Assembly (NCBI GenBank): GCA_964016885.1
Contig: OZ024740.1
Span: forward strand, 215,884,001 to 215,948,000
Direction: 5' to 3'
Source: Eledone cirrhosa
Taxonomy: Eukaryota
Length of the DNA stretch: 64,000 nucleotides
Part shown: positions 1-12,552 of the stretch, piece by piece
Numbering within the stretch: position 1 is the stretch's first letter
Layout: each line of letters starts with the position of its first letter
Notes under the pieces: generated by a model
Told to the model about the DNA's origin: nothing
Seen by the model: only the letters and a program-made list of their open reading frames with translations
Database searches by the model: none
Position numbers and translations under genes: made by a program

Positions 1-345
1 ATGTTTCCCTACTGTCTATTTTGTTAAACCAATCTATTGCTTCATTAGTGTTACCCCATAGTTTAACTTCTAGTTTGTCCTTGATTTGCGCTATTACTCT
101 ATCTAGTATATACTTGCTAATTCAACCTATATCTGACTTCGATGGGCATATTAATCTAATTGTAGGGTCTGTTTCGAAACTATTTTTGTGATCTTTTAGG
201 TTTAATATGGGGTTACAAGAGGTCCTTCCTTATTAATGTCCGTGAGTGTAGATTTGGTAGTTTTCCTGTATTTGTTGTGTAGTTCACGGCGTATAAAGTT
301 ATTGTATGTGTTAAGGCTTATGTGTATACATTTGATGTTTTGTAT
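1..345 (-). pseudogene. Penelope-like element (Naiad-type) reverse transcriptase N-terminal fragment, running off the left edge of the window
   Basis: Manual minus-strand translation gives KTSNVY...YRKTTKSTLTDINKEG...[36 protein letters not shown]...LWGNTNEAIDWFNKI. This matches the LKDHK / RLIxPxKS / W.NT..VI.WF pattern of Naiad PLE RTs. It contains frameshifts and a stop. Confidence 0.8.
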
Positions 346-1748: not shown

Positions 1749-1932
1749 ACGAAATTCATCTAATAAAGGAATATAATAATGGTAGACACAATCCAATTAC
1801 GTCGAGAGCTTTTTCTAATATTACATCACGGTTGACTATACGGAATGACCAGTTCTATCCAGTGGTGAACCAACAAACCTAAATTTATATATATCCAGCA
1901 AACCTAAATGTATATATATCCAACAAACCTAA

Positions 1933-1994
<62 letters not shown>

Positions 1995-2878
1995 GTATGT
2001 ATATATATGTATATATATATAATATTAAATAAGGCTTTAATTATGGCCATGAACAATAGTGACCTGACTAGATCCCAAATTGATGACATACTTGCGGCCA
2101 GAAAAACCATAATTACATTTGAAGAGCAATTATGGACCCGCAAGGATACGCATAACAACTTCGACATAACCATGGGATCTAGTGACTCGGCGCAGGTCAC
2201 TGATTTGGTTGGCCTGTACCTACTCATAAGAACCTACCCTACCTCAACGGTGGTTTATACCGCGATGATGCGCTTCTTCTTATAGACTATAAAAAATTTA
2301 ATATAGAAAAAACTAGGAAACAGTTACACAAAATTTTCAAAAACTTCAACTTAAGTATCACCTTAGATAAAAACACTAAAAACGTCAACTTCCTTGATGC
2401 TACCCTTAGCCTAGACTCTAAAATATACACACCTTATCATAAACCTAACGAAAAACTAATTTATGTGAACACCAACTCTAACCACCCTAAATCCATATTA
2501 AACTCTATTACTAAAGGAATATCTAATAGAATCTCTAATCTATCATATAATGAAACCATATTTAACAATAATTCACAATACTATAATGAGGCCTTAGCTA
2601 AATCATGACATAAGAATGAGATTGAATTCCTACCCATAAAATCACATAGTTACAACATTATTCTCACAATATGGCCATGAGGAAAAATAGTAAAAACACT
2701 AGCCACTATAACTCTAGGACGAAGATTAATACCAAACTTAACTCGCACCAAAGTAAACACCACAATAATAATATAAACAGGGATATAAATAGCTAAAAAA
2801 AATAATAATATAAACAAAAATAGAAGGAGAACTAATACATTCTTCAATCCCCCTTTCAATCTAAACGTCTCTACCAAC

Positions 2879-3652
2879 TTGCCTAAGGCATTCTTCTCAA
2901 TCTTGGAAAAAAACTTCCCGACCGGCCACAAGTACCATAGCCTTATCAATAAAATTAAAATATCGTACTCCACCACACCTAACATAGCATACCATATAGC
3001 TAGTAGTAATAAAAGGAAGATTAATAATTATTTCCAACTAATTAAAACACAACAGGAGGTAAACTTAGTACCTGTAAACAATAGTAGTAATAATAGTAAT
3101 AATGATAATAGTAATAATGAAATCAATAACAATACGAATGATAGACATCATTACCCTAGTGCTATCCCTAGCAACCAGAAATCTTCACAACATAGGAACC
3201 GGCAAGCTAACACCCAGAATAAATGTAACTGTAGAACTAATAGAACTTGCCCCTTAGGTAATAATTGTTTAACCAAAGACACCATCTACTCATGCACCGT
3301 CAACGCAAACAACTCTTCTGAAAAATATATAGGCTCTACTTCGAACAGCTTCAAGACAAGATACAACTCGCACTTCTTCTCTTTCAAAAAACACAATCTA
3401 GCCAGCTCCAATGCTTTATCTAGCTACGTACACTCTCTAAAAACTAAGAATAGACCATTTACACTGCAGTGGGAAGTAGTAGGTAGGGCCTCATCGTATA
3501 AACCACCGAATAAATTGTGTAATCTCTGCCTTCTGGAGACCCATACTATAATCTTTTCGAAACTAGACCTCCTTAATAGAAAGTCAGAGACATTTTCCTC
3601 GTATCAACACCGGCACCGGCACTCGTTCCATAACTTTAAACCTAACTGTTAG
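2879..3652 (+). pseudogene. PLE thumb/linker + GIY-YIG endonuclease (Naiad-type), C-terminal part of a broken ORF
   Basis: KISYSTTPN, CNCR...CPLGNNCL, TIY...YIGSTSNSFKTRYNSH, CNLCLLE, LNRKSE motifs. Confidence 0.9.
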
Positions 3653-5564: not shown

Positions 5565-6222
5565 ATGAAAATAGACCGAGAAACGGGACTGTCCATCATC
5601 AGTGGTCTGCTGACAAATCATTGGTATTTCTTCGCATTAAAGACCAGATATCTCAAAATCATGCGAGTAATAACTAAAATAAGTTATTGGGACAGAGCGA
5701 TTAGGATGGGGAAAGTAAACAAACAACATAGTAGTAATGCAACATAAAGAGAGGAACAGTGAGACAAGTGATACCTCTCTCCCCCTTCTCTCTCCTTGTA
5801 CCTATTGCTTTCATTCACCCCCTCTGCTGGTCACACACTCTCTCGGCTGGCCTCTTCCTCACACTTCACTCACTCACTCTCTGCTACTCCCCCTCTCTCA
5901 CTTCCTCCCGCATGACCTGTGTGAAATCCTTTTCTCTCTCACTTTTCGCGCGGTTCGGACGTGTCTGCCTCTTCTCGTCGATTGGTGTGTTCGGACTTAA
6001 GTCCACAAGTATCATTGACCTGTCTCTCGTCTCCTCTCTTTATGTTGCATTACTACTATGTTGTTTGTTTACTTTCCCCATCCTAATCGCTCTGTCCCAA
6101 TAACTTATTTTAGTTATTGCTCGCATGATTTTGAGATATCTGGTCTTTAATGCGAAGAAATACCAATGATAGTCAGCAGACCACTGATGATGGACAGTCC
6201 CGTTTCTCGGTCTATTTTCATT
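5565..6222. mobile_element. Fold-back unit with ~190-bp inverted arms (family A PLE-terminal-like element)
   Basis: 5565-5755 is the reverse complement of about 6035-6222. The body 5770-5950 is homologous to 18740-18910. Confidence 0.85.
6126..6200 (+). ncRNA. Permuted hammerhead-like motif, family A (mirror copy at 5586-5661 on the minus strand)
   Basis: GATAT-C-TGGTCT-ttaatgcgaa-GAA-ATACC-...-AGACCA-CTGATGA-tggacagtcc. Confidence 0.55.
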
Positions 6223-11540: not shown

Positions 11541-12142
11541 AGCAGGTACGAAGGGCTGTGGCAATAAAGGTGAACATTGAGAGCCATACCAATCCCACTC
11601 ACCCCATTTAAAGTAAGAAATAGATAACTTAGAGTTTAAAGGTTCACAGCGCTACAACATCCTGATAAAAACAGGAAGTAGTCTGTATGTAATGAATGTA
11701 AATGTCTTCAAGTAACATGAACATTCTATCTGAGATCCAAAGTAAGAATTCATGGTGGAAAGAATCACATGCTAGGGCAGCAATATATATCTTAATCATT
11801 CATCAACAGCCAGGGATAGATGTGGGCTAGGAGTAATGTAGCAACAGTGTTGACAGTGTCTCACCATGGCCACAACCAGCGAGCTGGAACAGGTCACATA
11901 GCAAGGAGATGAAAAGAATAGAATATATCATAAACAAAATTAACTCCAATATCGAGTTTTGAGACGCGTATGTATTAGAATTCGTGGGAAAATGGGAAAA
12001 CTCAGCGTAAGGAAGCTGTTAAAACAACAAAATGCCGTCGAAACGGCGTTGGTTAAAACATTAGCTCAAAGAATAGATGTGCGAATAGATGTGAATTGAT
12101 AGGAAGAAAGGAATAATATAGATGAGAGGGGATCACAAACAT

Positions 12143-12210
12143 TTAAATTTACTCATCAGCTTTCAGACCGCCTGCAGTTTCAACGACTTAACTGAAAGTA
12201 CTACGAAGCA
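12143..12210 (-). ncRNA. Non-circularly permuted hammerhead-like motif, family C
   Basis: Minus strand: GTAGT-A-CTTTCAG-ttaagtcgtt-GAA-ACTGC-aggcggt-CTGAAAG-CTGATGA-gtaaattta. Perfect 7-bp helix I, GUA triplet. Confidence 0.6.
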
Positions 12211-12552
12211 TAGCCGACTCGTAACAACGGAAAATAAATATCTCCGTTGGAATAATGTTTGTGTTTGGTCAGGTCAGAGAGAGAAAAATAAGGTGCGTCT
12301 ACTTGACGTCACGTCATTGTAAGAAAGGAAGAGGCACTGTAAGAGTCTTTATGTCAGTGAGGAGGTCACAGAATATGTGATGAAAAAACTTTGACAAACT
12401 AACTAATAACTAATAATAAAGCTGAAATGAATATCAAATAGTGCGTATGTTTCCATTGCCAGTATTGGCAAGATGACCTTTCCCAAACATAACAGAATCT
12501 TTCAACACACGATTTCACATGAAGAATCTTGCAGACAAGCACATAAAGGTGT

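Follow-up and report, generated by a model that had tools for sequence, protein, structure and literature searches.

A candidate SGC-order permuted hammerhead ribozyme with almost no helix II in a mobile repeat of Eledone cirrhosa

Can a hammerhead ribozyme whose blocks stand in a permuted order, with only 7 nt between helix III and helix I, fold and cut as one molecule, and what would it do for the repeat that carries it? A short segment of the Eledone cirrhosa genome raises this question. It lies in a stretch of 64,000 nucleotides that was analysed as a whole (the window). Every helix and core letter named in the original prediction is present, on the minus strand, which that prediction had left unstated. 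Read 5' to 3', the layout is GTAGT, A17, CTTTCAG, 10 nt, GAA, ACTGC, 7 nt, CTGAAAG, CTGATGA. Helix I has seven Watson-Crick pairs out of seven, helix III has 5 bp including one G-U, and GAAA (12181–12178) precedes the CUGAUGA core. Since helices III and I cross, the motif is a pseudoknot. Only one of the six possible block orders fits it, the non-circular order that Eckert et al. (2023; PMC10085705) named type SGC; the order of a circular hammerhead does not. Table 1 gives the features. Two contigs, both from one outside sample, span the copy with no differences; the sample may be the source of the assembly.

Table 1. Features of the family C copy and its predicted ribozyme, in window coordinates
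Feature	Position	Strand	Basis
5'-truncated family C copy	11930..12343	-	ends from copy comparison, unit length from natural tandem copy
Hairpin upstream of the ribozyme	12225..12249	-	visible here and in the majority of copies
Helix IIIb (helix III extension), 5' strand	12212..12218	-	one G-G mismatch in the window copy
7-nt bulge between IIIb and IIIa	12205..12211	-	alignment; predicted hinge, role inferred
Helix III strand GTAGT ending in U16.1 (block S)	12200..12204	-	covariation
H17 (A) and predicted cut between 12199 and 12198	12198..12199	-	H17 conservation, 5'-end cluster
Helix I strand CTTTCAG, 3' of the cut	12192..12198	-	3/7 pairs with two-sided change; partner test
10-nt crossover linking helix I and GAAA, with U11.1 as its last letter	12182..12191	-	pattern common to families AB and D
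G12 A13 A14 and helix III strand A15.1–C15.5, ACTGC at 12178–12174 (block G)	12174..12181	-	
7-nt connector AGGCGGT, the helix IIIb 3' strand	12167..12173	-	covariation, folding
Helix I strand CTGAAAG, 5' of the core (block C)	12160..12166	-	covariation, partner test
CUGAUGA catalytic core	12153..12159	-	sequence
G10.1, lone helix II pair with U11.1 at 12182	12152..12152	-	paired in 39/39
Palindrome TAAATTTA, private to the window copy	12144..12151	-	1/63 copies
Segment between two preferred 3' ends	11930..11980	-	Penelope-type 'tail', inferred

The motif belongs to a dispersed repeat, here called family C. A genome search returned 401 candidates, and the best 40 of these were scored; the window copy is 79–86% identical to the other 39. 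Sixty-three copies were collected. We aligned the 39 that are complete and ungapped over the motif and left out 24 that are truncated or gapped.

The proposed structure is 92.2% paired across the 39 copies, with 25 cells changed on both sides. None of 500 shuffles came as high, and slid controls were 31–41% paired. Two weaker measures discriminate less sharply: 20 of 500 shuffles matched the number of pairs with a change and 43 of 500 the pair-type measure. Helix I is 94% paired, has two-sided changes at three of its seven pairs and occurs as four matched strand pairs. Helix III is 93% paired, and two of its pairs changed on both sides, in one sequence each. These two-sided changes trace back to a small number of subfamily events rather than to many independent changes. 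Helix I was also examined with a later search pattern that fixed only its S side and left the partner strand free. At the first pair, A1.1 then faced U in 34/37 copies and C1.1 faced G in 20/21; at the third, C1.3 faced G in 18/19 and U1.3 faced A in 37/39. The call of a permuted hammerhead is thus borne out by SGC block order, intact core and compensatory helix changes. Loss of both pairings from other genomic copies had been set beforehand as one refuting result; both helices are instead kept, with compensation.

At the active site, the pair of U16.1 with A15.1 is U-A in 35/39 copies. The nucleotide before the predicted cut, H17, is A in 20 copies, C in 18, T in 1 and G in none, and it is never G across three families (39 copies of C, 48 of AB and 25 of D). 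The columns of the CUGANGA and GAAA core are 87–100% conserved in the 39 copies, a figure partly fixed by the search patterns. Core, helix I and helix III are all intact in 13 of the 39, the window copy among them. Helix II is nearly absent: a single G-U pair is present in 39/39 copies, with one-sided change only. A longer helix II pairing can be drawn by eye, without covariation. In family AB, helix II shows two-sided changes in 5/48 copies.

The 7 nt between helix III and helix I had been described as a free short linker. That description fails, for the connector pairs as an extension of helix III with a 7-mer upstream of it, across a 7-nt bulge (helix IIIb). Helix IIIb is paired in 88% of cells in family C, with a single two-sided change; in family AB, the same extension has two-sided changes at five of six pairs (48 of 54 collected copies). 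Judged from the alignments, and in family D by eye, the connector of each of the three families has a possible pairing partner upstream. The linker had also been called the strictest test of monomer folding. It is not, because published SGC connectors are as short as 3–5 nt (range 3–7 nt) and SGC-1, with a paired connector of 7 nt, cleaves (PMC10085705). Read from its printed oligonucleotides, SGC-1 has a 6-bp helix III, that connector and a 5-bp helix I; it cleaves at 0.026–0.051 per min, and almost fully during transcription (PMC10085705).

Families AB and D are the sister families of C in this genome. Exact matches to the family AB pattern number 12,149 genome-wide, against 0 for a control pattern; metagenome contigs gave 0 matches. 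The window holds AB motifs at 5602(-), 6184(+), 18601(+) and 19153(+), and AB units are often in tandem at 500–640 bp. In AB, the extension meets helix III at a 3-nt bulge with G-A and A-G pairs directly after it, a junction predicted by sequence to form a standard kink-turn. Among the letters left free by the search pattern, G2n is present in 48/48 copies and A1n in 47/48; the bulge-side letters are fixed by the pattern. The pair that most often follows G-A and A-G is U-U. No kink-turn is present in family C, which has the 7-nt bulge and no GA tandem. Family D, represented in the window at 1194(-), yielded 1,682 search candidates and has, by eye, a larger internal loop (6x3) in a longer helix III extension. 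A bulged helix II is possible in this family. Connector lengths across the families are 7 against 13–14 nt.

The family C motif had further been presented as an independent replicate of the neighbouring families. The helix sequences do differ, but the upstream extension and the segment from helix I to GAAA are common to C, AB and D, the latter following one pattern (roughly TYAA, 1–2 nt, CG, 2 nt). One family C copy (L205) even bears the family D helix I core. For these reasons a single lineage is likelier than separate origins, and C, AB and D probably share common descent, as judged from shared features rather than from a tree. We searched as well for further SGC families with short connectors, which gave 1,854 matches against 72 for the control. 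No new family emerged from the new loci inspected, which proved to be an array of type I retrozymes, another repeat's end, chance matches and more of family C.

The window copy itself has aged. It carries eight letters that are rare in family C, among them T at position 12203, where 36/38 other copies have C. One rare letter creates the G-G mismatch in helix IIIb, and folding predicts that the altered upstream IIIb strand takes CUGAU as its partner instead. The copy is decayed, likely weak or dead as a ribozyme, and probably a poor representative for assays. Family AB is probably a better target than family C. The palindrome TAAATTTA, originally singled out as a feature adjoining the core, does not hold up: it arises from two substitutions rare in family C, the two extra A's being found in 6/38 and 1/38 other copies, and it is complete in 1/63 copies. 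A role for it as a handle for dimers is rejected on that count. Among eight copies tested by folding, helices IIIa and IIIb form the dominant predicted fold in four. Nested folding also pairs the helix I strand with the stretch that contains GAAA, giving a closed rod, an inactive decoy that may serve as an off state.

What kind of element carries the motif? The family C unit is 628 nt long, as measured in a natural tandem copy (L067). It is non-coding, occurs in tandem with one hammerhead motif per unit, and no family-linked ORF was found. Copies are 5'-truncated, often have inverted or partial-tandem partners, and sit at (TA)n targets. Their 3' ends fall at two places, +228..231 from the cut in 30/74 copies and +281..285 in 12/74, mostly with TA runs after them. 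Two adjacent start sites of reverse transcription make up the Penelope 'tail' signature (PMC11167929), and by analogy the two fixed 3' ends with TA runs appear to match it. Copies that reach far enough contain an intron-like segment of 104–123 nt (GT, polypyrimidine tract, AG), unspliced in all.

No parent ORF for a reverse transcriptase and endonuclease was found around the fetched family C loci, and SGC motifs were found at none of 10 young Penelope-like element (PLE) loci of an 832-aa family and none of 29 of a 775-aa family. PLE fragments do adjoin some copies. They were rejected as the parent on their mixed orientation across TA runs, and their adjacency is attributed to shared TA targets. 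Family C does not have the build of an autonomous Penelope-like element, with its own reverse transcriptase and GIY-YIG ORF between pseudo-LTRs; by comparison with known elements it fits a non-autonomous, retrozyme-like one.

The window and its surroundings hold other elements of these kinds. At 12353–12396(+), a decayed minimal type I hammerhead in a very abundant other repeat faces the family C copy head to head, and at 40216(-) there is a type I-like hammerhead whose helix III is minimal. Young tandem arrays with a 310–311 bp unit and one type I hammerhead per unit (L190–L196, at G000:C1:22.62 Mb, and similar loci) are classical non-LTR retrozymes, in inverted blocks. A broken PLE with reverse transcriptase and C-terminal GIY-YIG occupies 1908–3649(+); in a related family with many intact 832-aa ORFs (L108–L117), no hammerhead was found at the ends. 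A second young PLE family (775-aa frames; L217–L245) is represented at 19300–19859(+) by a GIY-YIG fragment, and no hammerhead was detected within 1.4 kb downstream of that family.

If the RNA is cut before it is copied, some genomic copies should begin at the cut. In a first set, 23 pattern-found copies have 5' ends from -100 to +9 (one of them was scored wrongly); four of these ends fall exactly at the predicted cut and 11 lie between 0 and +9. For a second set, 58 of 64 matches were analysed. Some 19 of the 58 go back to a single insertion that was multiplied together with its flanks (L332, L344, L350–L358 and others; on C18, C19, C27 and elsewhere), a sign of a larger duplicated unit. This group was counted once, and ends beyond -80 were excluded. 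Eight of 19 independent 5' ends then lie within 2 nt of the cut (P from 2e-7 to 9e-6, depending on the width of the counting window); five of these eight also occur in the first set, and the ends were placed by manual curation. The pile-up is an indirect sign of cleavage in vivo. Most family C copies read through the cut site. In family AB the 5'-end signal is weak (53 copies), and one fold-back junction is centred on the cut. Counts of AB junctions, 42 at -4 to 0 against 2 at -16 and -15, were dropped on account of confounding by TATA microhomology.

We consider it probable that the SGC-order motif folded as a single pseudoknotted molecule and cut the repeat RNA, and that a Penelope-type reverse transcriptase, likely acting in trans, copied the product into (TA)n. 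Tandem units would be transcribed as multimers. Helix III and helix IIIb would form first; IIIb, bent back at the 7-nt bulge, would then serve as a strut reaching toward helix I, which the next strand would close as a pseudoknot, delivering CUGAUGA. The cut after H17 would free 628-nt monomers, some of which may circularise, as in retrozymes. Reverse transcription would initiate at either of two internal sites, roughly 231 and 283 nt beyond the cut; copies from cut RNA would stop at the cut and those from uncut or re-ligated RNA would run through it. On balance, we also lean toward the broader reading that the families form a mobile repeat lineage with an active, non-circularly permuted hammerhead, almost without helix II, in which the helix III extension acts as a strut replacing the contact between helices I and II, and that this lineage has tens of thousands of copies invisible to current descriptors. 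The strut is predicted from sequence to take the form of a kink-turn in one family and of a 7-nt bulge or 6x3 loop in the others.

Geometry counts against a monomer. A rough A-form estimate, which uses assumed geometry, leaves a monomer with fully paired IIIb 6–14 Å short unless helix I frays to 5 bp. This estimate is not decisive, as the same arithmetic makes SGC-1, which cleaves, too short. The apparent shortness of a fully paired connector next to a 7-bp helix I speaks for a different arrangement, in which cleavage occurs only in a dimer or across tandem units: the helix I strand and CUGAUGA of one copy would invade the loop of a second, while each molecule retains its own helix III/IIIb hairpin. 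Units do occur in tandem, other Penelope-linked hammerheads are reported to depend on dimers (PMC4209133), and helix I has low probability when intact copies are folded as single strands, by a program that cannot form pseudoknots. We nevertheless hold this arrangement to be rather unlikely. SGC-1, of similar lengths, cleaves almost fully in transcription (the accessible text of PMC10085705 gives no concentration test), the conserved AB kink-turn is most simply a hinge for folding back within one molecule, and the palindrome that might have served as a handle is not conserved.

A second alternative accepts the fold and doubts the cut. The structure might be a recognition or pausing signal for a Penelope protein, or cleave only with protein, with cleavage minor in copying. 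Such behaviour has a precedent in the anole Poseidon hammerhead, which was cut only with protein and was dispensable for insertion in vitro (PMC11167929), and it would suit both the near absence of helix II in family C and the many genomic copies that run through the site. The 5' ends, however, cluster at the exact hammerhead position, where a polymerase arriving from the 3' side should have no helix left to stall it, and H17 avoids G in all three families. We judge this alternative quite improbable.

That hammerhead-like words came to stand in this arrangement by chance is scarcely credible: a looser pattern did catch unrelated repeats with GAAA upstream of CUGAUGA, so word order is weak alone, but a descriptor covering all six block orders found four SGC-order motifs in the window (1194, 12159, 18601 and 19153), 0 in 100 local dinucleotide shuffles and none in 100 kb of adjacent, unselected DNA, the same pairings persist in three families whose helix sequences differ, and the compensatory changes largely refute the idea.

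If this motif does cleave, a cellular genome contains the SGC form in many copies, and there is a second way to build it. Standard searches would then miss a class of retroelement ribozymes, and such ribozymes may be common in eukaryotic genomes if the new build is real. The connector series of 7 against 13–14 nt offers a natural test set for the folding of knotted hammerheads, and the 5'-end pile-up a genomic handle on whether Penelope-linked hammerheads cut during transposition.

Hammerhead permutations of the non-circular kind were described as rare in 2023 (PMC10085705). Five natural SGC examples were shown there to cleave; according to the accessible text all come from metatranscriptomes and none from the genome of a known organism (PMC10085705). 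The literature that we searched, mostly outside subscription journals, describes no SGC-order hammerhead from any eukaryotic genome or retroelement. In their accessible parts, PMC4209133 covers type I variants only and PMC13725137 merely cites Eckert et al. Eight Naiad cases with the second half of the core 'on either side' (PMC8557442) might be related to SGC-order motifs.

No Rfam hammerhead match appears in 11900–12450 at E up to 10, and only low-complexity matches appear for the whole window among the 150 of 231 listed. The published SGC descriptor asks for CGAAA, CUGAUGA(U)G and a helix II with at least two further pairs (PMC10085705); through its helix II term it finds 0/39 family C and 0/48 family AB copies, so that a standard search could miss them.

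Family C shares with the published SGC variants, including HRIMA-1, the S-G-C order, the full core, the helix I/III pseudoknot, a short crossover that leads out of helix I toward GAAA, and a connector between helices III and I that is paired (PMC10085705). It differs in two features of build. Published SGC motifs have G10.1-C11.1 and a helix II of 2–6 bp, whereas family C has about one G-U pair; their connector pairs downstream of helix II, whereas that of family C pairs upstream, as a helix III extension (PMC10085705). By eye, the C and AB alignments show no conserved connector partner 3' of helix II (the 'I' stem). The setting differs too, metatranscriptomes for the published motifs and genomic repeats for C, AB and D (PMC10085705). 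In build the motif is a type SGC hammerhead, and it probably works like one, while missing these two published features.

As an element, family C resembles the non-LTR retrozymes, with non-coding tandem units of a few hundred nt carrying one hammerhead each, dispersed monomers and proposed mobilisation by Penelope-like elements (PMC7229834; bioRxiv 10.64898/2026.07.22.740005). Those are defined with type I hammerheads, and their circular RNA and expression have been shown (PMC7229834; bioRxiv 10.64898/2026.07.22.740005); family C has SGC order. The minimal type I hammerheads in the pseudo-LTRs of Penelope-like elements also occur as partial tandem or inverted copies, in many families and with a stripped-down ribozyme (PMC4209133). 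There, helix III is lost and helix II is long (PMC4209133); in family C, helix III is extended and helix II is lost. Unlike the pseudo-LTR elements (PMC4209133), family C was found with no attached reverse transcriptase-endonuclease ORF. The predicted hinge of family AB, a 3-nt bulge and then G-A and A-G, is like the box C/D-type kink-turn, and family C departs from the standard kink-turn with its 7-nt bulge on the other strand (PMC5061560). Taken with these comparisons, the motif is best described as a known ribozyme form with an altered build, in a setting new for it, a genomic mobile repeat.
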